Assembly (NCBI GenBank): GCA_964384115.1
Contig: CAYLJU010000003.1
Location: 7,375-71,374 of the forward strand
Length of the DNA: 64,000 nt
From: an uncultured Muribaculaceae bacterium
GTDB lineage: Bacteria; Bacillota_I; Bacilli_A; RF39; UBA660
Reading direction: 5' to 3'
Shown here in pieces: positions 105-41,395 of this stretch (position 1 is the first letter of the stretch; each line of letters starts with the position of its first letter). The notes beneath the pieces are model-generated. The model saw nothing but the letters and a program-made list of their open reading frames with translations, ran no database searches and was not told the origin of the DNA. A program made the translations under genes and the position numbers.

Positions 105-160
105 ATAAAATTTACGGGTTTGTGCACCTAAAAGTGTACCTAAAAATCAGTTGTTTTTTG
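105..160. repeat. left copy of imperfect direct repeat (AATTTACGGRTTT ... AAAAATCAG) flanking the 171-4270 cassette; contains internal tandem GTGYACCTAAAA x2
   Basis: The sequence aatttacgggtttgtgcacctaaaagtgtacctaaaaatcag at 105-160 matches aatttacggatttaacttttaaaaatcag at 4279-4312. Confidence 0.45.
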
Positions 161-344
161 ACGTCTTTGATTTTTTTATATTTTGTTTTTTAATAATTTT
201 CTTTTTTTCTAAATTTTTATCAGAAATAGATTCATTGATACACTCAATATAAAGTTCACTAAATATCTCTTCTAATCTTTCTATCATACCATATTCACCT
301 TTTAAAAATTTTTTTATCTCAATAAATTGATTATATATAAAAAG

Positions 345-857
345 TTAAACTAATATCATAATAGTAAAACTTATCAAATATGGTAATGCTTTATTTAATC
401 CATTAAAATCAAAACCATCTTTTGTACAAAACGATAATAAAGTTGGTATTACAATTGATAATATAGCTAATAAATTACCTCCAACTATTTTAGTTTTAAC
501 TAAATTTCTATAATGATTAATTATACATAACAATGACTTTTCATTATAAATATTATTTTTATTTGAATATTCTTTAAAAAGTTTATTTTCAAAATTCCTA
601 ATAATCAATGTTAGAGGTTCTTCATCATTTCTTTTCTTTCCTATGCTCAAATGTAATTTTGTTTTCAAAACTCTTTCGCTTACTTTTTTCATGATAAGAA
701 GCATTGCTATAAAAATTAAAATCATAAATATAATTTTGTCAAAAAAATTGAAAATTAATGATATAAATATAGACATAACATATATCCAAAATGTCCTTTT
801 CTTAATTATATTATATGGACTTTCCTTTTTATAAATCTCTTCTATATCTTTATACAT
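345..857 (-). CDS. hypothetical integral membrane protein (several predicted TM helices), last gene of the left-end accessory cassette
   Basis: 170-aa ORF with hydrophobic stretches typical of TM helices. It is on the same strand as, and directly downstream of, the DUF2075 gene. Confidence 0.4.
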   Translation of the reverse strand: MYKDIEEIYKKESPYNIIKKRTFWIYVMSIFISLIFNFFDKIIFMILIFIAMLLIMKKVSERVLKTKLHLSIGKKRNDEEPLTLIIRNFENKLFKEYSNKNNIYNEKSLLCIINHYRNLVKTKIVGGNLLAILSIVIPTLLSFCTKDGFDFNGLNKALPYLISFTIMILV

Positions 858-884
858 ATTGTTTTCTCCTAAATTTAATAGATT

Positions 885-2759
885 CTATACCAAATTATTC
901 CTTCTTTTTAAATATTCTTGTAAATCCTTGTTAGTACAATATATATAGCAACCTTTCATTCCTCTAGTCATTAAAGTTTTGTAAGTATTTTTAATAATTT
1001 GATCAGATATTTTTTTAGCTTTCTCTATTCCCTGTTCTTTTGCTATTTTATTAATACCTTTTAAGGATTGATCTGTTTTAGCTCTCTTAGTATAATCTGT
1101 AACAACATGGCCATCTTCATATCTTAAATCATCACCAATGATTACTCCAACATAATCAAATTCTAGTCCTTGACAAGTATGAATACAACCTATTTCATTT
1201 ACTGATTCTTTATCAATTGCCCATGTGCTTGAATTTCCTAAATTCCAACTCATTCCAAAATTATATTCAGGGATAGTTATATCATATACATCTGATTTAT
1301 TTTTTCCTTCACTTATCCAATTCCAACAATATCCTGCAACTAATCTTGATTTGTTATTAATATCATTTGCTTTTTCTATTGCTTTTCTTAGTTCATTAGG
1401 ATCATCAAACACTTTAAAATCATATTTACTATCTAAATCAAAATTTGCTGTTTCCTTAATGTCTAAAATATTATCCAACCATGCTAAATAACCATCAGAT
1501 CCATCACATCTAAATTGACTTTTTAAATCCATTTTATATATACCAGCATTATAATAATTTGCATATTTTTTTATTTCTGCTATAGATCCATTATCTTTTA
1601 AAGTAACTCTTTGATTTTCATCTATAAAAAATATTGAGAACATGCTAGAATTAATTATTTCCTTTATTTGATTCTCACCAAGATTAGAAAATAATCCAGA
1701 CTTTTTATTTAAACGATGAGCCTCATCAACAATTAAAACATCAAATGCGTTTGGTTCACAATCATAAAAACATCCTGAACCCTTAAATAAATTGTTTAAG
1801 CCACTCATTTTATCTATTTTTAGTTTTGCCTTAAATACTTCCCTTGGTGCACTATTTTTAGTAACATAAAAGCTATTTAATCCTCTATTTAAAAATTGTC
1901 TTAGCAAATTAATAGCTAATACTGATTTTCCCGTTCCAGGTCCACCTTCAACTATCAAAACACTTTTTTCATTATGTAAATGTGCATTAACTTCTATTCT
2001 TAATGCTTCTTCAAAAATGACTTTTTGATCATCAATAAGAACAAATTCTTTATTTCCTTTTAAAACTGAAGAAAATGAATCTTGGAGCATTTTAGAAGGT
2101 TTTATTTTTCCATTTTCAATTATGTATAATCCTTCTTTATTATCACCTTCAACTATATATTTTTTAATAAAATTTCTAAGTTTTTCAAAATCTTTAGATC
2201 CAAACATTGGTGCAACATTTATATAATCTTTATATTGTTCGCTATTAATTGGATCATTGCCATTTAAATCATAGTTATGCAAAAATGCACATGGATGCAA
2301 TCCAACATTTCTATCATATACTTCTTGATTGTAACTGTTAATAAGGCTTGCATAACTCCACGCTTGATATGATGGATGCGTAACTTCTCTTAATGCTTTT
2401 CCTGTAAAAGTAGAAACTACTCCATCTTTTCCTTCAACTGCATCTGCATGAGTCCATTGTTTCAGTTCAATTATTATTATTGAGTTTTGTTTGTTTTTAT
2501 CATATCCAGATAATAAGAAATCAATTCTGTTAGAAGTATGGGGAATATTAAATTCAATAGCAACACCAGCATTATTTGGTATTTGATTATCAGCTAATAC
2601 ACCTCGCATTCTTAACATAGACTCACGCCAAGAATTAACTTCTGACTCTCCTGTACTTCTATGAAATACTTCTTTAAATCTATTTAAAATTTTATCTGTT
2701 ATCAAATTTAAATCAACATCATTTATAAAACTTGATTTTACACCTTCATATACTAACAT
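885..2759 (-). CDS. DUF2075-family nuclease-helicase: N-terminal PD-(D/E)xK-like nuclease plus SF1-like ATPase with Walker A/B
   Basis: The N-terminal segment RIDFLL...IIIELKQW fits a D...ExK restriction-endonuclease-like motif. Walker A is GGPGTGKS and Walker B/DEAH-like is LIVDEAHRL. The C-terminal QGLEFDYVGVIIGDDL block is typical of DUF2075. Total length is 624 aa. Confidence 0.75.
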   Translation of the reverse strand: MLVYEGVKSSFINDVDLNLITDKILNRFKEVFHRSTGESEVNSWRESMLRMRGVLADNQIPNNAGVAIEFNIPHTSNRIDFLLSGYDKNKQNSIIIIELKQWTHADAVEGKDGVVSTFTGKALREVTHPSYQAWSYASLINSYNQEVYDRNVGLHPCAFLHNYDLNGNDPINSEQYKDYINVAPMFGSKDFEKLRNFIKKYIVEGDNKEGLYIIENGKIKPSKMLQDSFSSVLKGNKEFVLIDDQKVIFEEALRIEVNAHLHNEKSVLIVEGGPGTGKSVLAINLLRQFLNRGLNSFYVTKNSAPREVFKAKLKIDKMSGLNNLFKGSGCFYDCEPNAFDVLIVDEAHRLNKKSGLFSNLGENQIKEIINSSMFSIFFIDENQRVTLKDNGSIAEIKKYANYYNAGIYKMDLKSQFRCDGSDGYLAWLDNILDIKETANFDLDSKYDFKVFDDPNELRKAIEKANDINNKSRLVAGYCWNWISEGKNKSDVYDITIPEYNFGMSWNLGNSSTWAIDKESVNEIGCIHTCQGLEFDYVGVIIGDDLRYEDGHVVTDYTKRAKTDQSLKGINKIAKEQGIEKAKKISDQIIKNTYKTLMTRGMKGCYIYCTNKDLQEYLKRRNNLV

Positions 2760-2760
2760 T

Positions 2761-3111
2761 TTACTTCAAACTCTCCTTTATTTTTTGACAATCTACCGAA
2801 CTGCTAGTGTCAAAATGATTTTTACACATGCTACAATGGCATCGATCATTATTATAAATTTGTAATTGAATATATTTTCCTTCATTACCATAACAATTGT
2901 CGCAATACAATATTTTTGGGTATTCATCTTTTAAAGTTATTAAAGGTATGCTTCTATACCTTTCAATATTATTATTTTTTCTGAGTTGTTCTTTTAATGC
3001 ATTATTCTCAACTTGTAATTTATATATCTTGTCCTGCAAATTTATAACTTCTTGCTGAGTACTAATAACTTTTTGAACCATTTCTATATCATTAGATTTT
3101 TTGAGCAACAT
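2761..3111 (-). CDS. small coiled-coil protein with C-terminal Cys/His zinc-ribbon-like motif
   Basis: The N-terminal half has heptad-like Leu/Gln/Glu periodicity. The C-terminus is CDNCYGNEG...RCHCSMCKNHF (C-x2-C ... C-x-C-x2-C-x2-H). Its stop TAA is 1 nt from the ATG of the DUF2075 gene, suggesting translational coupling. Confidence 0.5.
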   Translation of the reverse strand: MLLKKSNDIEMVQKVISTQQEVINLQDKIYKLQVENNALKEQLRKNNNIERYRSIPLITLKDEYPKILYCDNCYGNEGKYIQLQIYNNDRCHCSMCKNHFDTSSSVDCQKIKESLK

Positions 3112-3154
3112 TTACAACATCCCTCAATAACTTTATTGCATTCACACTTTACTC

Positions 3155-3469
3155 CTATAATTTATTATATTTAGTACTTTTTCCTTTAGCTTTCTCTATA
3201 GGGTACTTCTTAGCAGATATTTCCATTTTATCAAGTATTATTTGCTTTGGGTCAACACCTATTTGATGACATAATAATATACAATAATTCATCACATCAG
3301 CTATTTCATATTTAAGTTCATCTTTATCATAATTATTGTTCCATTGAAAACATTCCAATAATTCTCCAGATTCAATAGCAATAGACTTGGCAAGATTTTC
3401 TGGTGTATTAAATTGTAACCAATCTCTGTCTTCTGCAAATTTAACTATTTTTGTTTCTAATTCTTTCAT
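3155..3469 (-). CDS. MazG-like nucleoside triphosphate pyrophosphohydrolase (small all-alpha NTP-PPase)
   Basis: 104 aa with the EExxE...E..D metal-binding pattern (ESGELLECFQW ... KYEIADVMNYCILL) typical of the MazG/dCTPase NTP-PPase fold. Confidence 0.6.
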   Translation of the reverse strand: MKELETKIVKFAEDRDWLQFNTPENLAKSIAIESGELLECFQWNNNYDKDELKYEIADVMNYCILLCHQIGVDPKQIILDKMEISAKKYPIEKAKGKSTKYNKL

Positions 3470-3482
3470 ACTTTTCCTCCTT

Positions 3483-3534
3483 ATGACACTATGACGTTAA
3501 GTTAGGATATACCCTATACCTATTTCTAGTGTCA
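3483..3534 (-). promoter_or_regulatory. 9-bp inverted repeat (ATGACACTA ... TAGTGTCAT) in the regulator-MazG intergenic spacer
   Basis: The two arms are perfect reverse complements, separated by ~35 nt. They lie in the spacer between the HTH gene stop and the MazG start. Confidence 0.35.
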
Positions 3535-3546
3535 TTCTGTCATTTA

Positions 3547-4092
3547 TTAATCAACTATATCACTTACTGATACATTGTAACATTCAGCTAATTTCTTAAC
3601 TACTTCATTACTTAGTTTTCTACTTCCTTTTTCATATTTATTGTAAGTAGATAAATCAATACTTAAGTATTTTGCTAATTCTTTTTGAGATTTATTGTTT
3701 TCTAATCTCAAATTCTTAATTCTAAGTCTAGCTCTTACTTGTATCTTTTCTTCTATTTCATCTAATCCTTTGTTAGGATTTTGTAAATCTATAGTTATAT
3801 ACTTTTCTGCATTATTAGCTACTTTCAAGGCATAGTTAGATAATTCTAATGATTCTTTATCTGATAACTCAGGCATATTTTCAAAAAAGTAATTTGTTGA
3901 TACTTTATAAAATTTAGCCAAGTCTTGTAATACACTAATAGGTACCATTCTATCACCTAATTCATAGTGTTTATATGTAGAAGTTTTTACTCCTACTACT
4001 GAACATATTTCTCTCTGTGTTAGGTTAAATTGCTTTCTTAACTTACTCATATTTGTTCCTATAGTAACATCCAATGATTTCCTTTTTTTCAT
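3547..4092 (-). CDS. transcriptional regulator with two tandem XRE-type helix-turn-helix domains
   Basis: Two HTH_3-like segments: LTQREICSVVGVKTSTYKHYELG and KSQKELAKYLSIDLSTYNKYEKGSRKLS. It is the first gene of the cassette on the minus strand. Confidence 0.7.
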   Translation of the reverse strand: MKKRKSLDVTIGTNMSKLRKQFNLTQREICSVVGVKTSTYKHYELGDRMVPISVLQDLAKFYKVSTNYFFENMPELSDKESLELSNYALKVANNAEKYITIDLQNPNKGLDEIEEKIQVRARLRIKNLRLENNKSQKELAKYLSIDLSTYNKYEKGSRKLSNEVVKKLAECYNVSVSDIVD

Positions 4093-4278
4093 AGAATTAC
4101 CTCTTATTTTTCCTTATAAATTTATTATAACACAAGATTTCCAATTTGGAACATTAAATATAAAATTTGTCAAAAAAACAAATCTAAATTTGTTAAAATT
4201 TTCACAAAAAATTCGCTACTCATAGAAAAGTAAAAGACCATGAAGCTAAGTTTAAAGTAAAAATTAAAAATCAAACTG

Positions 4279-4312
4279 AATTTACGGATTTAACTTTTAA
4301 AAATCAGCGCTT
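4279..4312. repeat. right copy of imperfect direct repeat flanking the cassette
   Basis: See the left copy at 105-160. The shared cores are AATTTACGG[G/A]TTT and AAAAATCAG. Confidence 0.45.
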
Positions 4313-4441
4313 TTAATTTGTAAAAATTATACATTAGTTTATCCTTAATGGTAATTAACTATAAAATATATTATATACTATTCTTTTATAAAAGTCAGCA
4401 CTAATAATATTATATCTTGTTTCGAAAACAAAGTCAGCACT
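4297..4441. promoter_or_regulatory. three copies of an AAARTCAGCRCT motif upstream of the HTH regulator gene
   Basis: aaaatcagcgct (~4300), aaagtcagcact (~4391) and aaagtcagcact (~4430). Confidence 0.35.
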
Positions 4442-4560: not shown

Positions 4561-5298
4561 CTATTTTTTTATTTCATTTAAAAATTTAATGAATATATTT
4601 TCATTATCTTGAAGTAATTTCTTTGAGGCTTTTAATGTTACCCATATATTTTGATTAAATAATACATTTATTTTGATACATGCATCTTGCCTATTTTGCA
4701 AGCCTTCTTTTAAATTTATTCCATTATCAAGTAGTACTGCATAATCATTTAAATCAGTTATTGTTCTAATATCTTCTGTATCATTAAACACTTTGAAATC
4801 TTTTGAATAATTATTATTTGATTTTTTTCGAGTATATAATAATTCATTTAATTTATTTTCTATTTCTGGTGTAATCATATTTGCGAATCTAAAAAGATTT
4901 CTATCATATGCCACATAATCTAAAGTGATTTCTTTGGGCAACCTATTTTGACATACTTCAAAGCAATGCAATAATTTATTTTTTAATTCAGATATTAATA
5001 CATCAAATTCTTGATTATTCTTTTTATAATCTATATCTTTATGAGCATTATTTTTATCTCTTTCATAATATATTTTATTGACTATTTTATCATCTGATTT
5101 TATTTTTTTTAATTCTGTTTTATTGAAACTATAATCAAATATTATGCATAAATTTATATAATATAGTCTTAATTTAGAATCTATTATAGATTTTAAATCT
5201 AAATTGCTTAATGGTTCAAAATTATTTTCTATATACATTAAACTATCAATACACTTTTTTGAATCTATTAGATATCTTGCTAATTCCCATTCATTCAT
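4561..5298 (-). CDS. hypothetical protein (no recognisable domain)
   Basis: 245-aa ORF on the same strand as its neighbours. Lys/Asn-rich and non-membrane. Confidence 0.4.
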   Translation of the reverse strand: MNEWELARYLIDSKKCIDSLMYIENNFEPLSNLDLKSIIDSKLRLYYINLCIIFDYSFNKTELKKIKSDDKIVNKIYYERDKNNAHKDIDYKKNNQEFDVLISELKNKLLHCFEVCQNRLPKEITLDYVAYDRNLFRFANMITPEIENKLNELLYTRKKSNNNYSKDFKVFNDTEDIRTITDLNDYAVLLDNGINLKEGLQNRQDACIKINVLFNQNIWVTLKASKKLLQDNENIFIKFLNEIKK

Positions 5299-5374
5299 AT
5301 TTTCACCTCAAATAATATAATCGACTAAATCATATAATAATCAATATCTAATTTCTATTTTCACAATTCAAATT

Positions 5375-5728
5375 TTAAAGTATTTTTTTATTTAATATGC
5401 AATTTGGATTTTTATCAGCATATATTTTCAGAATGTATATTGTAAACAATAACATAGTACTAATTATAATAATTATCCAGTTTTCAATAATAAATGTCAC
5501 CAAAGTAATTACTATGCAACATATAGTCCATACAAATATAAACACAAAAATTCTTATTATCCAGTGACTTATTGAACCGATTTCACCTCTAAAACCCAAT
5601 TTGCCAACAACGCTAAAAGCTATTTTATATGCAATATAACCTATAATAGTCATTGCTACATAATTATAAATAGGATTTTCAAATAAAGATAATGGTGATG
5701 TTATCATTTCAAACATAAATTTTTTCAT
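5375..5728 (-). CDS. small hypothetical membrane protein (3 predicted TM segments)
   Basis: 117 aa with strongly hydrophobic segments. Confidence 0.35.
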   Translation of the reverse strand: MKKFMFEMITSPLSLFENPIYNYVAMTIIGYIAYKIAFSVVGKLGFRGEIGSISHWIIRIFVFIFVWTICCIVITLVTFIIENWIIIIISTMLLFTIYILKIYADKNPNCILNKKIL

Positions 5729-5797
5729 TTATAATCCCCCTACTTCTTAATCATTCTATAAGCTAAATTTATAGTTAAGTCCTCTTTATCTAATCAT

Positions 5798-6466
5798 TTA
5801 CTCATCTATTAATTTTATCAAATTATATCCAATAGACGTAATTATAATTTTATCTATTCCAGCATCAGCTAAAACAGGAAGATTCCCAACTGATATTGCA
5901 TTACCCGAAGACTTTAAGCTATCACAAACTTTTAATCTAAACAGATTTAAAACCATAAGTTCATATTCTTCATCATTAATGTGTAATACGTTTTGAATAG
6001 TATTTCTGTCATAATATATATTTTTATTTGTACGTGTTTCTTCTAAATTAGGATCAACACTTATTTGTTTCAATAATCTAATTTCATTAATATTTAAATT
6101 TTTTAAAATTTCAATATACATATATTTAGGATCACAATTTTTTTCAATGTCTTGCCAATTAATTAGCATATTACACCATTGTTCTTGAATTTGTTCATTA
6201 TCTTCTTGTATAGCATTTTCTAATACTTCTAAAATAAATTTAGGAGGTAATGGCGTCTCTTTTCCTTCTAATTTTCTTCTTGCTCTTTTTTTATTATATT
6301 TATCTAGAAACTTTAAAGTATTGTTCCATCTAAAATAAGATAATTGATCAACTATAATATCACCAATAGAAGCAACAACCCTATTTTTAAAATTTTTAAG
6401 CTTCAACGAACCGGTACCAACTTCAGTATCTATTGAAATTTCAAATTCTTTATCTTTTTCTTCCAT
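5798..6466 (-). CDS. hypothetical protein, possibly Abi-alpha-like (weak resemblance, from memory)
   Basis: 222 aa with an acidic/W-containing central segment (PPKFILEVLENAIQEDNEQIQEQWCNMLINW). The resemblance to abortive-infection alpha proteins is weak and unverified. Confidence 0.3.
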   Translation of the reverse strand: MEEKDKEFEISIDTEVGTGSLKLKNFKNRVVASIGDIIVDQLSYFRWNNTLKFLDKYNKKRARRKLEGKETPLPPKFILEVLENAIQEDNEQIQEQWCNMLINWQDIEKNCDPKYMYIEILKNLNINEIRLLKQISVDPNLEETRTNKNIYYDRNTIQNVLHINDEEYELMVLNLFRLKVCDSLKSSGNAISVGNLPVLADAGIDKIIITSIGYNLIKLIDE

Positions 6467-6796: not shown

Positions 6797-8782
6797 TTAA
6801 TCAAGATTATCTATATTATTATTTATTTCATCAATCAACTTTTTATTTACATTTTCATGACAAGTTACCAATTCTGAAACATCTTCTTTTGCTTGTACCA
6901 TTATATTATAATCTTTTCTTACATCTGATAATTCAAATGACATATCACCGCTTTGTCTATATCCAAATAGATCACCACTTCCTCTTAATTTAAAATCTTC
7001 TTCAGAAATTTTAAATCCATCTGATATATCAACCATTATTTTTAGTCTTTCTTTTTCATAATTTGAAATTAATATACAATATGACTGTAATTCATTTCTG
7101 CCTACTCTTCCTCTTAATTGATGAAGTGCGGATAGACCAAATCTAAAGGCATCAAATATAACCATCATTGTTGCATTTTTTACATCTATTCCTACTTCAA
7201 TAACTGTTGTTGAAACTAATATTTGAGTTTTATTTTCTTTAAAATTGTTCATTGCTTCTTCTTTTTCTTCATTTGTCATTTTTCCATGTAATAAGCCAAT
7301 TTTATATAGTTTTCCGAAGGCAGTATTCATTTTATTATACAAAGCTTCTACATTTTCTAAATCCATTTTTTCGCTTTCGTCTATTAATGGCGCGACTACA
7401 TATATTTGATGACCTTTTTTTAATTCATCTAGCATCATATATAATACATCTTTAATTTCAGTTTCTTTTTTTAGAATAGTTATTATTTTTTTTCTTCCAT
7501 TTGGCATTGTTTTAATACTTGATATATCCATATCACCGTATAAGGTTAATGCATATGTTCTTGGTATTGGTGTTGCACTCATATATAATGTATCTGGTGT
7601 GATACCTTTATTTTTTAATTCACTTCTTTGATTAACTCCAAATCTATGTTGTTCATCGGTTATTACTAATCCTAAATTATTATATTTTAATTTTTCACTT
7701 ATTAATGCATGGGTACCTATTGCAACATTTATTATTCCTTCTTCTAATTCTTTATAAATTTCTTTTTTTTCTTTGGCTTTTATTTTACTTGTTATTAAGC
7801 ATACTTTTACACCATATGGTTTTAGAAGATTGTTTATATTTTCATAATGCTGACGCGCTAATATTTCTGTTGGTGCCATTAGGGCACTTTGATATCCACT
7901 TAAATAATTTATGTAAATTGCAATAATTGATACTAATGTTTTTCCAGATCCTACATCTCCTTGTAATAATCTATTCATTCTTCTTTCGGATATTAGATCG
8001 TCATATATGTCATTTATTGCTTTTTGTTGATCTGGTGTTAACTTAAATGGTAATTCATTAATAAAACTGTCTACTTTAGATTTTTCAACATTTCTTTTAA
8101 GTCCTATTTTAAATTTTTTGTTATTTTTTAGATAATTCATTTTTAACATAAAAATAAATATTTCTTCATATTTTAAGTAATTTAATGATTTTTTCAATGT
8201 TTCTATTTCTTTTGGATTATGAACATTATATATTGCTTCTTTCTTATCTATAAAATTATATTTTTCTTTTAAATAATCTGGTACATATTCTTTTATTTCA
8301 AAATCTTGTAGTGCAATATCGATATATTTTTTTAATACTTTTCTGCTTAATCCATATGTTAAATGATATACTGGTTCAATTATTGTTTCATTACCTATTA
8401 ATCCAATTTTAATTTCACTTGCTGTAATTGTATTGTGAATTTTATCATATTTTCCTATAACTGTTACATTTGTATTTTCTTTAATAGTAGCTCTCATAAA
8501 TCCACGATTGAATATAATTATATTTACTAAATATGTTCCAGTATTTATTTTAAAGCTTAATTTATCTAAGTTCTTTTTGATGCGATAAAAAGATGGTTTT
8601 GTTTCAACTTTTCCATCAATAGTTACATATGTATTATTTTCTGCTTCTTTTAAATTACTTCTTTTTATCATGTTATATCTAAATGGATAATATGTTACTA
8701 AATCATTTGTATCTTTAATTTTTATTTTATTTAATAAATTTAATGTTTTTGGTCCTATTCTTTTAATTTCTTCTAATTTCAC
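6797..8782 (-). CDS. recG: ATP-dependent DNA helicase RecG
   Basis: 661 aa with N-terminal wedge-like region, helicase motifs GDVGSGKT (Walker A) and DEQHRFG, and a C-terminal helicase domain. Confidence 0.9.
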   Translation of the reverse strand: MKLEEIKRIGPKTLNLLNKIKIKDTNDLVTYYPFRYNMIKRSNLKEAENNTYVTIDGKVETKPSFYRIKKNLDKLSFKINTGTYLVNIIIFNRGFMRATIKENTNVTVIGKYDKIHNTITASEIKIGLIGNETIIEPVYHLTYGLSRKVLKKYIDIALQDFEIKEYVPDYLKEKYNFIDKKEAIYNVHNPKEIETLKKSLNYLKYEEIFIFMLKMNYLKNNKKFKIGLKRNVEKSKVDSFINELPFKLTPDQQKAINDIYDDLISERRMNRLLQGDVGSGKTLVSIIAIYINYLSGYQSALMAPTEILARQHYENINNLLKPYGVKVCLITSKIKAKEKKEIYKELEEGIINVAIGTHALISEKLKYNNLGLVITDEQHRFGVNQRSELKNKGITPDTLYMSATPIPRTYALTLYGDMDISSIKTMPNGRKKIITILKKETEIKDVLYMMLDELKKGHQIYVVAPLIDESEKMDLENVEALYNKMNTAFGKLYKIGLLHGKMTNEEKEEAMNNFKENKTQILVSTTVIEVGIDVKNATMMVIFDAFRFGLSALHQLRGRVGRNELQSYCILISNYEKERLKIMVDISDGFKISEEDFKLRGSGDLFGYRQSGDMSFELSDVRKDYNIMVQAKEDVSELVTCHENVNKKLIDEINNNIDNLD

Positions 8783-11900: not shown

Positions 11901-12371
11901 TGATAAATGGGCAACTGCTGCTAATAGATTAGCGTCTTGAACTGATGATGATGCTAATATGGCAAATCCAGTTTGTCTTGTTGCATATATATCTTGATGG
12001 TCTCCCATTATGCTTAAGGCATGGGTAGCAAGGCTTCTTGCTGCAACATGAAATACTGCTGGTAGCATTTCACCTGCTATTTTATACATATTGGGTATCA
12101 TTAGTAATAATCCTTGACTTGATGTAAATGTTGTTGTTAAAAGTCCTGATGTTAGAGAGCCATGGACAAATCCGGCTGCTCCTGCTTCCGATTGCATTTC
12201 TACTACTTTAACGCGATCATTAAATATATTTAATTTTCCTTTGTTACTTTCATTATCAATGTATTCTGCCATTGGTGATGAAGGTGTTATTGGGTAAATT
12301 CCGGCAAGTTCAGTGAAAAGATAAGCTGTTCTACTGCATGCTTCATTTCCGTCAACTGTTATTTGTTTCAT
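8985..12371 (-). CDS. nifJ: pyruvate:ferredoxin (flavodoxin) oxidoreductase, homodimeric single-chain type
   Basis: 1128 aa. N-terminus MKQITVDGNEA...YPITPSS. Two 4Fe-4S ferredoxin motifs (CxxCxxCxxxCP). C-terminal TPP-binding GGDGW motif. Strong AGGAGG RBS. Confidence 0.9.
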   Translation of the reverse strand: MKQITVDGNEACSRTAYLFTELAGIYPITPSSPMAEYIDNESNKGKLNIFNDRVKVVEMQSEAGAAGFVHGSLTSGLLTTTFTSSQGLLLMIPNMYKIAGEMLPAVFHVAARSLATHALSIMGDHQDIYATRQTGFAILASSSVQDANLLAAVAHLSAIESSIPFLHFFDGFRTSHEIDKINIIDDKEYAKLIDKNALNKFRNKALNPNKPVTKGTAQNDDIYFQVTESRNIFYESIPDIVEKYMNKINELAHTNYKPFNYYGSKDATKVLVAMGSVNETIKETIDCLNKKDYKVGLVEVHLYRPFSTNHLLKILPKTVKKIAVLDRTKEPGSIGEPLYLDITAALKDKNIEIYGGRYGLSSKNTNPACIKAIYDFLDKPFNNFTVGIVDDITKRSIKVDDNFKISTSNEMLIYGYGSDGMVSAAKSIIKLVGENTNNYVQGYFQYDSKKSGGVTISHLRFNKEKIRSTYYVENPNIIVCTKESYLDRFNILDKIKENGIFILNTEKSKEEIIKTLNDNIKYTIKNKNLKFYIINAYSLASKVGIKGKISTIMESVIIKLSNVMEYENAINHMKNEITKKFAKKGEEVINANKRAIAESLEILEKVELEDEDFIIEQEENINSIEEAILDRKGENLPTSAFLKYADGTAKSGFTDKNAISNIVPKWNKEYCLECNQCSFVCPHGVIRPYLLSEEEYNAAPNYIKERCKKPLIKALKDYYFIMGIAIDNCTGCTLCMKTCPNRGKALSAQKIEKAKENKEAEVFEYLNKKIKNKNLFDIFSVKGSQFEKPKLAFEGACAGCGEPAYIRILTQLFGEELIIANATGCSSIYGASSPCTPYTVPWANSLFEDNAEFALGMAVSNSQMKKRIHKIMEENKNNPLCKKYLENENDYNITKEVYENLDYSKLPELKKIKEYIKKRSIWAIGGDGWAYDIGFGGIDHALSTNENINILVLDTQVYSNTGGQASKATPIGTLAAFAGFGKKNYKKDLARIALSYPHVYVATVCLGANPNQLIKVLKEANEHNGPSIVIAYAPCISHGITGGMENSIEIEKQAVSCGYYPLFHYKPGEEFILDSKEVNFDDYQNFLEKQTRFNAIKKINPSEADKLLEYNILEAKKRFYYYESLSRK

Positions 12372-14145
12372 TATTTCCTCCTACATCTACAAACCAAGAT
12401 TTTGTTATATTGCATGAAGCACTGTTTGGGGCGGGATTTGGCATTGCAAATTTTATGATTACAGGAATTTTAAATCCGCTTCCAAATGCCATGCACATTC
12501 CTGGTGGTAGTAATTTTATTTTTTTTACTGTTTCTTCAGTTATATTTGGTATAATTTCTTTTATGAATTCAACATCTTTAGGGTGTTGTACTTTAAATAT
12601 TAAAAAATTGCTGCACTGGGATATAGCTGTTTCTGATAGTTCTGATGGTCTTTGTGTTATTAGTCCTAATAAAACACCATATTTTCTTCCTTCTTTTGTT
12701 ATTCTATCAAATATATTATATCCTAGTAAGTTTACGTCGTTATCGTTTTGGACATATCTATGTGCTTCTTCTAAGACTATGTGAAATGGAAAAGTTGCTT
12801 TTTGTTCCATATTCTTAGCATAATCAAATAATAATTTTGAATATATTTTAGTTATTGTTTTTGCTAATCTATCATCTATGTAGTTTATATTGAAATTTAT
12901 TATTTGGGCTTTTCTTCCGTTTGGTGCTGTCATAAGATTACGAATATATTTTTCTTTTGTTATGTATTCTGGATAATCAAAATATGTGTGATTTTCACTG
13001 TTTAATAATGTGTGTAATCTTACTTTTAGTATATTTAAATCATCGTATATTTTTTGACTATTTAATACTCCTTCTGATATAAGGGCGAATTCAAAAGCAT
13101 CTTTTAAATCTTTTAATGTATATTTGAATGTTCCATCTGGTAATTGTAGATTATATTCTTCTAATAAATATCCATTCATTACATTTGTTACTAATTCCAT
13201 TTCTCTTATTTTTCCTGTTGCATCTATTAATAGGCATTGTTTTAATGGTCTTGTATATCCTGGTTGTACTACTTTAGTTTCTAGATTTAATTCACTTGTG
13301 TTGTAATATGATAATACAGAAAATACTTGGTCTCTTATTTGAGCTGGTGAATTTCCACTTGATAATATGTCGAGGATTGCACGGGCTATTATGTCATTTT
13401 TATATTTTATAACACTTGATTCTTCTCTTCCAAAGATGGTTACATATTTTAAAGCTTTTTCAATTATTGTTAATTGAGATGCTTTTTCAGCGTTTAGTAA
13501 AAGTGCTATATCGTCAACCCCTAAAAACCATAGTGGTATACGCATTATTTCGCTTGGTCCTTTGGTATTTGTTGTATATGCTTTAAAACTGATATTTGGA
13601 TTTATTTTATTTATGTTTTCAAAGGCATTATGATATTCACCATAGGCATCAAATAAAAAGATTGATGCTTTGTATGGTATAGACATTTTTTTACTGAATA
13701 AATTTTGAAATATTCGTGCTACTCCGCATGATTTTCCTGATCCGGTGGATCCTATTATTGTAAAATGTTTGCTGAAAAAATCATTTATATTGACTCCTAT
13801 TTGGACATCGTCATATATTGGGCTTGTACCTAATAATAAATCTTTGTTTTCTTTGTATGTTGGCATACCTATTATGTATGGTACTTTTTCTTTTGATACT
13901 ATTTTTACAATAGAATCTAATGATGGTTTTTTGGAAATTCCGCTTACAAATGTATTTTCTTTTATTTGACCTATTAGATTTACTTGTAGTGTGTTTTCAT
14001 TTATATTGATGACTTCACCTACTAAATTATTTTCATTATTTTCAAATACAACAAAAGAATTTGTGATATTGCCTATGTTTGTTATTTGAGGATTTAATTT
14101 TACATATACTATATTTTCTTCTATTGATATTATTTTTCCTAACAT
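12352..14145 (-). CDS. HerA/FtsK-superfamily ATPase (HAS-barrel + P-loop, DUF87-like), paralog 1
   Basis: 597 aa with an N-terminal HAS-barrel-like segment, Walker A GSTGSGKS and Walker B HIVLEEAHRY, plus an ITQRPSELSETAISQCSNFLIFK block. Its last 20 nt overlap the PFOR start. Confidence 0.75.
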   Translation of the reverse strand: MLGKIISIEENIVYVKLNPQITNIGNITNSFVVFENNENNLVGEVININENTLQVNLIGQIKENTFVSGISKKPSLDSIVKIVSKEKVPYIIGMPTYKENKDLLLGTSPIYDDVQIGVNINDFFSKHFTIIGSTGSGKSCGVARIFQNLFSKKMSIPYKASIFLFDAYGEYHNAFENINKINPNISFKAYTTNTKGPSEIMRIPLWFLGVDDIALLLNAEKASQLTIIEKALKYVTIFGREESSVIKYKNDIIARAILDILSSGNSPAQIRDQVFSVLSYYNTSELNLETKVVQPGYTRPLKQCLLIDATGKIREMELVTNVMNGYLLEEYNLQLPDGTFKYTLKDLKDAFEFALISEGVLNSQKIYDDLNILKVRLHTLLNSENHTYFDYPEYITKEKYIRNLMTAPNGRKAQIINFNINYIDDRLAKTITKIYSKLLFDYAKNMEQKATFPFHIVLEEAHRYVQNDNDVNLLGYNIFDRITKEGRKYGVLLGLITQRPSELSETAISQCSNFLIFKVQHPKDVEFIKEIIPNITEETVKKIKLLPPGMCMAFGSGFKIPVIIKFAMPNPAPNSASCNITKSWFVDVGGNNETNNS

Positions 14146-40975: not shown

Positions 40976-41395
40976 GAGTTTTCTAGAAATTGTTGTACCA
41001 TTTATATTAGGCTTTATCTAATATAAATTCTAAATGAATATTATCAGTATTCACCACAACTTCTTATCATTAGAGTTTTTCTTTCTCATAAAACAATTGC
41101 TTTTGCTTAGCGCTGATAAGAATTTATTAATACCAATTAATAAATTTTTCTTGCTTTAAAGATCTTTTTTTTAGCAAACCGACTTGTATTATACTAAATA
41201 TAATACCAACCATCTTCAGACAGTCATTCGTGATATAAAATCACTAGTTATTTTATAAATTATTTAAATATTAAATAATTTGATAAAATATTAGGTGCTT
41301 ATATGATCTATTCTTACTAAGCAATTATATTGTAGCATATATTTTTTTCGTTGGCAATACATTTTTTGAAAATTTTGTCAAAAAATGTAATTTAA

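Follow-up and report, generated by a model that had tools for sequence, protein, structure and literature searches.

Near one end of the window, the whole 64,000-nt stretch of contig CAYLJU010000003.1 that was analysed, lies a cassette of five open reading frames (ORFs), all on the minus strand and spanning 345-4092, which encode an XRE regulator, a MazG-like pyrophosphatase, a coiled-coil/zinc-ribbon (Zn-ribbon) protein, a DUF2075 nuclease-helicase and a predicted membrane protein (Table 1). The proteins of the window were searched against the Pfam, NCBIfam, PHROGs and PADLOC (PADLOC-DB 2.0.0) family libraries. An earlier note, made from the letters alone, had called a regulator with tandem helix-turn-helix (HTH) domains, a MazG-like NTPase and a membrane protein, and these calls are borne out, respectively, by two HTH_3 domains (4.4e-30 in Pfam, with 86.6 bits against a cut-off of 80 for an RstR-family NCBIfam model), by a PF12643 match above the gathering score (62.1 bits, cut-off 27, 6.1e-17) with the ExxE...ExxD motif retained, and by two predicted hydrophobic regions at about residues 22-61 and 124-146. 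The co-directional, close packing described in that note is likewise present, with successive intergenic gaps of 77, 43, 1 and 27 nt from the XRE gene to the membrane gene and a Shine-Dalgarno sequence before each gene. The stop of the Zn-ribbon gene lies 1 nt from the DUF2075 ATG (2761/2759), as had been noted, and the AAGGAG of the DUF2075 gene is located within the upstream gene.

Table 1. Features of the cassette and its borders (positions are those of the window).
Feature	Coordinates	Strand	Description
Tyrosine-integrase N-terminus remnant	4197..4316	+	39 codons, divergent from XRE; translation NFHKKFATHRKVKDHEAKFKVKIKNQTEFTDLTFKNQRF*
Upstream composite direct repeat	4279..4307	-	CTGATTTTTA ... 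CCGTAAATT; inside the integrase remnant
XRE regulator	4092..3547	-	tandem HTH, XRE/cI-like, 181 aa
Stem-loop	3483..3535	-	between XRE stop and MazG ribosome-binding site; 9-bp perfect arms ATGACACTA/TAGTGTCAT
MazG-like pyrophosphatase	3469..3155	-	104 aa, all-alpha NTP type (DCTPP1/RS21-C6); first gene of the conserved pair
Rip1-like coiled-coil/Zn-ribbon protein	2761..3145	-	intact ORF 3111..2761, 116 aa; long N-terminal helix and 4-Cys zinc ribbon
DUF2075 nuclease-helicase	2759..885	-	624 aa; second gene of the conserved pair
Predicted membrane protein	857..345	-	170 aa, locus-specific
46-aa lysine-rich ORF	287..147	-	doubtful gene; no family match
Downstream composite direct repeat	109..150	-	holds a 12-nt internal tandem duplication, TTTTAGGTACAC x2

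Two of the five genes form a conserved pair. Relatives of the DUF2075 protein were sought in one genome per species and found in 458 species genomes; the neighbourhood counts refer to the best 80 loci of these genomes, in each of which ORFs were called and then searched with the window proteins and a MazG hidden Markov model, and 73 of which are judgeable, the other 7 being cut by a contig end. A MazG gene adjoins DUF2075 on the same strand in 59 of the 80 loci (59 of the 73 judgeable ones), immediately upstream in 22, upstream but separated by an insert in 29, and immediately downstream in 8. MazG and DUF2075 recur together; the whole five-gene set does not recur as a unit. The pairwise identities of the two proteins correlate across the 59 loci (Spearman 0.71), and the DNA similarity of the window to other loci covers exactly these genes, namely the MazG ORF (3470-3152) and the DUF2075 ORF (2768 to ~905), breaking at 3152-3156 at the MazG stop, resuming at 2759-2768 at the DUF2075 start and ending at ~905-936 near the DUF2075 stop. 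The pair is also present on Halalkalicoccus and Priestia plasmids, where it is annotated as 'nucleotide pyrophosphohydrolase' plus 'DUF2075', and where DUF3578, MutT and type I restriction-modification (R-M) genes lie beside it. Across the loci, the flanking genes are mainly defence genes (Fic/PDC-S72, Mrr, type I R-M, AAA_21, NERD, Abi_alpha, ToxIN), including a Fic protein (PDC-S72) upstream of MazG in 12 loci, and NUDIX, DUF3427-helicase and DUF3578 genes, which are tied to modified DNA, are recurring neighbours. In the literature searched, no relevant joint mention of MazG with DUF2075, Nhi or Schlafen was found, a description elsewhere being possible.

The DUF2075 protein matches PF09848 (the former DUF2075, now SLFN-g3_helicase) with 343.9 bits against a cut-off of 24 (1.6e-102), its residues 265-609 covering profile positions 1-353 of 354. 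In an alignment of 31 homologues of 44-91% identity, the helicase motifs GGPGTGK272-278, DEAHR345-349, QFRC, HTxQGLE527-533 and R599 are invariant, as are E69, D80, E98-L-K100 and Q132-x3-Y136 in the N-terminal part, which we take to be the E69/D80/E98-x-K100/Q132-x3-Y136 signature of RecB/Cas4-type PD-(D/E)xK nucleases. The earlier note had assigned the protein a PD-(D/E)xK-like N-terminus and a superfamily 1 (SF1) ATPase; the SF1 part is confirmed by the PF09848 score and the invariant motifs, and the nuclease part is suggested by the invariant motif set. PADLOC gave partial matches to AbiO, Nhi and PDC-S41, of which the Nhi model PDLC02372 aligns residues 219-465 with profile positions 160-374 of 470 (E 5.7e-15), the AbiO match being similarly partial. 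Queries of the PDB sequences, whether by the protein alone, by its full profile or by a profile of its N-terminal part, returned nothing but P-loop noise.

More than 8000 homologues of this protein are detectable, the best 120 of them 84-92% identical to it. The 80 best loci are spread over Bacilli, Oscillospiraceae, Lachnospiraceae, Muribaculaceae, Saccharibacteria, Spirochaetes, Methanobrevibacter and Methanomassiliicoccales, which indicates frequent horizontal transfer. Archaeal copies, found in Methanobrevibacter and Methanosphaera (L028, L068, L071, L075, L084, L088), Methanomassiliicoccales (L065, L070, L087) and a haloarchaeon (L089), are 50-70% identical to the bacterial protein and several have a MazG partner, indicating transfer between the two domains, probably in gut and rumen communities. 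On a Hymenobacter canadensis plasmid (L090, 4001-7987) the same helicase family is arranged differently, two tandem DUF2075 genes without MazG following a DNA methyltransferase and a DUF4747 protein.

The closest functional precedents for the DUF2075 protein are Nhi of Staphylococcus epidermidis (SERP2475; Bari et al. 2022) and Nhi-like (Millman et al. 2022), both of which protect experimentally against phage. Like these, the window protein combines N-terminal PD-(D/E)xK-type nuclease motifs with an SF1 helicase overlapping DUF2075/PF09848 in one polypeptide, and the defence-island setting is common to all of them. By contrast, the window protein belongs to a separate sequence family, with only about half of the length of the Nhi model being matched, and it has a MazG-like partner, whereas MazG is not mentioned in Bari et al. 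2022 or Millman et al. 2022. The helicase of the Schlafen group III proteins (SLFN5/11/13) belongs to the same Pfam family, PF09848, but the direct match to SLFN11 is very weak (E 0.11, in the P-loop region), and the predicted N-terminal nuclease of the window protein is RecB-like rather than a Schlafen RNase. The paper on bacterial Schlafen defence treats the RNase domain, and the terms DUF2075 and PF09848 are absent from its text.

The partner enzyme, the MazG-like pyrophosphatase, aligns over its full length to an archaeal pyrophosphatase (PDB 4qgp, 8.1e-17) and to DCTPP1 (6sqw, 1.1e-14). The metal site ExxE...ExxD of DCTPP1/RS21-C6 and the AF1178-type proteins (PF12643) is retained, as are their RDW and FQW segments; the window enzyme differs from these proteins in its minimal size of 104 aa and in being genetically tied to a nuclease-helicase. 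The metal ligands E33, E36, E55 and D58 are kept in at least 97% of 66 pair-associated homologues, and the window enzyme retains the predicted catalytic residues. Because these residues are conserved, a role of MazG as a pure sensor, like that of KomB in Kongming, was judged unlikely.

Between the two genes lies a position with exchangeable content, hereafter the swap slot. It is filled in 29 loci, in which 230-1300 nt separate MazG from DUF2075 and hold one gene (rarely two), and its genes cluster into about 18 mutually unrelated families. Those that could be annotated are a reverse transcriptase (a full-length match to DRT UG13b, 1.1e-108), a DEDDh exonuclease with a BRCT domain (PDC-S48), DUF4145 (PD-T7-4), HEPN_AbiU2, Hypoth_Ymh and an HNH nuclease; about ten families have no annotation. 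All on the same strand, the slot genes sit close to their neighbours, at distances of -13 to about 10 nt, and some overlap the genes on both sides. Defence genes embedded in restriction operons are a familiar arrangement, including PrrC in EcoprrI and HEPN, Fic and DUF4145 genes in type I R-M loci, and P2/P4 phages carry defence hotspots; in all of these, as in the present loci, conserved flanking genes enclose an exchangeable abortive-infection gene. By analogy, the slot appears to behave like the embedded-gene position of a restriction operon or a P2/P4 hotspot. The guest families HEPN AbiU2, Ymh and DUF4145 are common to the slot and the restriction operons, with Fic adjacent to the former, whereas the host operon is here MazG/DUF2075 instead of R-M, and a methyltransferase is absent. 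According to a recent review, DUF4145 is the RNase of the ring-activated RAZR system.

The occupant of the slot in the window, the Zn-ribbon protein, has no family match in Pfam, NCBIfam or PADLOC, and a word-indexed search gave 14 close homologues. Exhaustive profile searching placed it in a family of 110-140-aa proteins with 1426 cluster representatives at E <=1e-3 and 239 at E <=1e-10, 50 of 62 members of which match PHROG 1244, a family annotated without function. The AlphaFold model, built from a 72-sequence alignment (predicted local distance difference test, pLDDT, 89.7), consists of one helix at residues 2-47 followed by a small beta zinc ribbon with four invariant cysteines, and its top fold match is Rip1 (PDB 9oox). 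The family profile likewise finds Rip1 first among all PDB sequences (9oox_L, E 5.5e-4, with YxCxxC...CxxC aligned), and a profile alignment with Rip1 by hhalign reached a probability of 92.2% (E 5.7e-7). Thus, the occupant is, on the evidence of profiles and model, a remote homologue of Rip1. Foldseek of the model against PDB and BFVD returned nothing significant, namely generic Zn-ribbon ribosomal proteins and a viral protein, M4STA4, at E 0.03, and tblastn of the protein and of protein P0292 against phage genomes gave no match. A YabA-like replication regulator was also considered as its identity and was rejected, the weak coiled-coil matches covering the helix alone.

Rip1 is described as a single prophage-encoded protein whose C-terminal half binds the ring-shaped phage small terminase or portal, after which its N-terminal amphipathic helices form a membrane pore that aborts infection (PMC13434031, citing Patel et al. 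2026). Rip1 (Patel et al. 2026, Nature 651:1060) and the window protein are both small and share a long N-terminal helix and a C-terminal 4-Cys domain. They differ in sequence (identity about 18-25%), in origin (Bacillota and gut metagenomes for the window family, Proteobacteria for Rip1) and in context, the window copy lying inside the MazG/DUF2075 operon and Rip1 between terS and terL. A further likeness is that members of the window family are found in prophage packaging modules, one distant member (L096) directly after TerL. Other members occur after an AAA_21/RloB pair, in an AbiH island and in L007, all without DUF2075, and also beside small membrane proteins, and the clade nearest the window shares the MazG/DUF2075 slot in four lineages (L001, L002, L003-6 and L029). 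Such variety of context speaks more for an autonomous module than for a dedicated subunit of DUF2075. Some relatives show further arrangements: the 281-aa P0280 is a family member fused to an N-terminal DUF4062 domain (1.7e-27), and in L100 a separate protein of 274 aa extends over the start of a family member. In the second Rip1-like lineage, at L003 (10255-13728, and also at L004-L006), a 386-aa protein with no family match comes before the trio of MazG, Rip1-like and DUF2075 genes, and a 645-aa AAA_21/ABC-type ATPase and a DUF2130 protein come after it, an arrangement kept across four contigs.

The window copy of this gene is frameshifted. Its homologues begin MDAIKLLRDVVNVAQKSNDIE, a peptide also encoded in the window, from a GTG at 3145 (3143-3145) with a good ribosome-binding site ahead, but this reading frame is lost because the A-run at 3097-3102 has six A instead of the five present in L002, L003 and L029, a +1 frameshift. 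The frame resumes at the internal ATG at 3111, with the loss of the N-terminal 11 residues. The six-A run is also present in the independent assembly L001; decay of the gene, phase variation and a sequencing error common to both could each account for it. The hydrophobic moment of the full-length homologue P0001 is highest over its first ~22 residues (0.58, reached by 5% of shuffles), whereas that of the shortened window copy is no better than in shuffles. Because the frameshift removes the most amphipathic N-terminal segment, the window copy may be weakened or dead.

The cassette as a whole looks like a decayed integrative element. The tyrosine-integrase remnant beside the XRE gene shares 77% DNA identity with the 5' end of the intact integrase gene of L008, the nearest relative in which XRE-MazG is likewise present, and the L008 integrase matches Tn1549 Int (6emy) at 2e-10. 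The imperfect direct repeats that the earlier note had placed at the borders are real but short, consisting of two motifs of 10 and 9 nt that occur in the same order at both ends and enclose the XRE gene through the 46-aa ORF. In the 64-kb window, the minus strand carries CTGATTTTTA at 4307 and 150 and CCGTAAATT at 4287 and 117, and neither motif anywhere else; generic repeat finding, like local alignment of the sequences flanking the cassette, gave results no better than shuffles, the composite repeat emerging solely from an exact-motif count. The presence of the XRE gene would be explained by the lysogeny-type combination of an integrase with a cI-like repressor. A homologue of it lies upstream of MazG in one other locus alone (L008); it is probably a neighbour and the regulator of the integrative element, outside the conserved pair, and probably represses the operon. 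The stem-loop between the XRE and MazG genes (minimum free energy -18.8 kcal/mol, z -3.59, equalled by 0 of 200 shuffles) could be an attenuator, terminator or operator. The locus is in part of the prophage-type regulatory kind that had been set against a defence cassette in advance, since the XRE gene adjoins a tyrosine-integrase remnant. At the other end of the cassette, the membrane protein has no match in Pfam, NCBIfam, PHROGs or PADLOC, and no homologue in the 87 loci except in L001, which is the window sequence, or, by tblastn, on plasmids; the 46-aa ORF recurs in L001 alone, with a sequence identical to that of the window.

The element lies in a defence island next to recG (8782..6797, minus strand). 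An Abi_alpha gene (6466..5798, minus strand; PF14337, 1.1e-11) is located between recG and the cassette, and Abi_alpha and ToxIN flank the cassette, one on either side. Also on the minus strand between recG and the cassette are genes for a membrane protein of 117 aa (5728..5375) and for a protein of 245 aa (5298..4561) that matches no family, and the genes of 4561-6466 (Abi_alpha, 117-aa and 245-aa) are possibly further defence genes. The ToxIN-type type III toxin-antitoxin locus is seen in L001 (6983-7662), ~330-1010 nt beyond window position 1, as 3.3 copies of a 34-nt tandem repeat followed by ToxN (PF13958, 5.9e-49). The earlier reading of the region as a defence-type, horizontally acquired locus agrees with the predicted Nhi-type architecture, the catalytic MazG residues and the presence of Abi_alpha and ToxIN at its sides.

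Each part of the cassette resembles something known, namely an Nhi-type enzyme, a DCTPP1-type enzyme, Rip1 and an XRE/integrase frame. As one joint reading, the locus is probably the remnant of an integrative element in the defence island by recG, which carries a conserved, horizontally mobile two-gene module, travelling and diverging together across Bacteria and Archaea, and a swap slot with a Rip1-like guest. The element would follow the order of integrase stub, cI-like XRE, cargo genes and short flanking repeats. How the pair acts is a more tentative matter. A possible mechanism, to which we give somewhat less than an even chance, is an attack on phage DNA synthesis from both sides, by DNA degradation and by hydrolysis of deoxynucleoside triphosphates (dNTPs): the helicase-nuclease would unwind and degrade phage DNA ends or replication intermediates, as Nhi does, and MazG would hydrolyse dNTPs, its substrates being modified dCTP/dUTP analogues made by the phage or the surge of dNTPs during infection. 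Modified bases are hinted at because the MazG is DCTPP1-like and NUDIX, DUF3427-helicase and DUF3578 neighbours recur. MazG-like proteins have been proposed as dNTP/NTP-targeting effectors in the rare PUA-HAD systems, and a nucleotide-hydrolysing enzyme in a defence setting is likewise found in the dNTP-depleting defences (dGTPase, dCTP deaminase, Clover, PUA-Cal-HAD), but there the enzyme family or the partner set differs, and the window MazG comes without a sensor or regulatory domain. The Rip1-like guest would attach to ring-shaped proteins of the phage (small terminase or portal) and render the membrane permeable; that it does so alone, as a late abortive-infection backstop, is an evenly balanced proposition.

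Several points weigh against this account. A small unregulated dNTPase is expected to be toxic unless it is specific or of low affinity. The helicase is able to stand alone, 14 loci with intact flanks having no MazG. For the MazG-like protein no PADLOC model matches, the PADLOC Nhi and AbiO models cover just part of the helicase core of its partner, and residues 1-260 of the DUF2075 protein have no Pfam and no PDB sequence match, the AlphaFold2 model of this protein reaching a pLDDT of 40 from a shallow alignment of 29 sequences at least 83% identical. The tight, often overlapping packing of the slot genes would, furthermore, also be compatible with a functional three-part system.

In such a three-part system, MazG and DUF2075 would form the core and work with a sensor or effector subunit, encoded by the middle gene, that is exchanged in the manner of the effectors of CBASS or retrons, with the Zn-ribbon protein coupling phage sensing to the nuclease-helicase. 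This would account for slot genes that always lie between the core genes on the same strand with no space for promoters of their own, for the 1-nt distance between the Zn-ribbon stop and the DUF2075 start, and for the recurrence of the window-like Rip1 clade in the slot of four lineages. It is nevertheless unlikely, because 22 loci are insert-free and 8 have the reversed gene order, the slot genes include full-length autonomous defence genes (DRT UG13b, PD-T7-4/DUF4145, AbiU2), the wider Zn-ribbon family has members away from DUF2075 in unrelated settings (a prophage packaging module, an RloB locus, an AbiH island, L007), and Rip1 is reported to act alone. Extending the system to all five genes, as a sensor-effector device that kills by nucleotide depletion and membrane damage, would explain why co-directional, closely spaced genes are enclosed together by repeats, but such a device is highly improbable: the membrane gene is in no other locus and DNA similarity stops at the DUF2075 end, XRE recurs once, and unrelated genes replace the Zn-ribbon gene elsewhere. 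The single five-gene module of the earlier note is therefore abandoned in favour of the MazG/DUF2075 pair with its swap slot.

A different view is that the pair does not serve immunity at all, but rather a mobile element or DNA repair, through nucleotide-pool sanitation and a replication/recombination helicase-nuclease, with defence genes hitch-hiking alongside. DCTPP1-type enzymes are cellular house-cleaning enzymes, a RecB-like nuclease with an SF1 helicase is also the design of the repair enzymes AddAB and Dna2, and the pair is present on plasmids and beside integrases, all of which would suit such a role. Against it stand the flanking genes, which are mostly defence genes, the patchy distribution with up to 92% identity across distant phyla, typical of defence cargo, the protection against phages by Nhi and Nhi-like, which appear to have the same architecture, and the near absence of the pair from phage genomes. 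Carriage of the pair by phages was itself examined and rejected, with 4 of 50,697 phage records and 4 viral contigs. A purely non-immune function of the pair is thus quite improbable.

The MazG/DUF2075 pairing, the operon-internal swap slot and the size of the Rip1-like family appear to be undescribed in PADLOC-DB 2.0.0 and the searched literature. Nhi-type nuclease-helicases have been treated as single-gene defences, but a large clade of them, whose relatives occur in at least 458 species genomes across both prokaryotic domains, is here paired with a DCTPP1-like enzyme, which suggests that nucleotide supply and DNA are attacked together. The slot occupant of the window widens the recently described Rip1 pore family to more than 1,400 sequence clusters outside any Pfam model. 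The swap slot is a practical tool for finding defence genes, the unannotated families, about half of its occupants, being good candidates because the annotated ones are defence genes. The boldest proposal, which we consider doubtful, is that MazG-like and DUF2075 constitute a widespread unnamed two-gene anti-phage system whose operon doubles as a place where abortive-infection modules of one gene each can dock (Rip1-like, DUF4145, DRT UG13b, HEPN). If true, this would amount to layered immunity in one transcript, in which the guests might be restrained or co-triggered by the core, like PrrC by EcoprrI.

Some minor observations concern the surrounding sequence. The minus strand of the spacer that separates the integrase remnant from the 245-aa gene holds two tandem promoter-like units ~39 nt apart (4365-4440, GTGCTGACTTT ... 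TATAAT, with 10/12 consensus matches each), and a third GCTGATTTT lies at 4308. Farther into the window, a gene for a HerA-like DUF87 ATPase (12352-14145) overlaps the end of a pyruvate:ferredoxin oxidoreductase gene by 20 nt, and a PGK RNA motif (RF03040, 74 bits) is present at 41034-41127.

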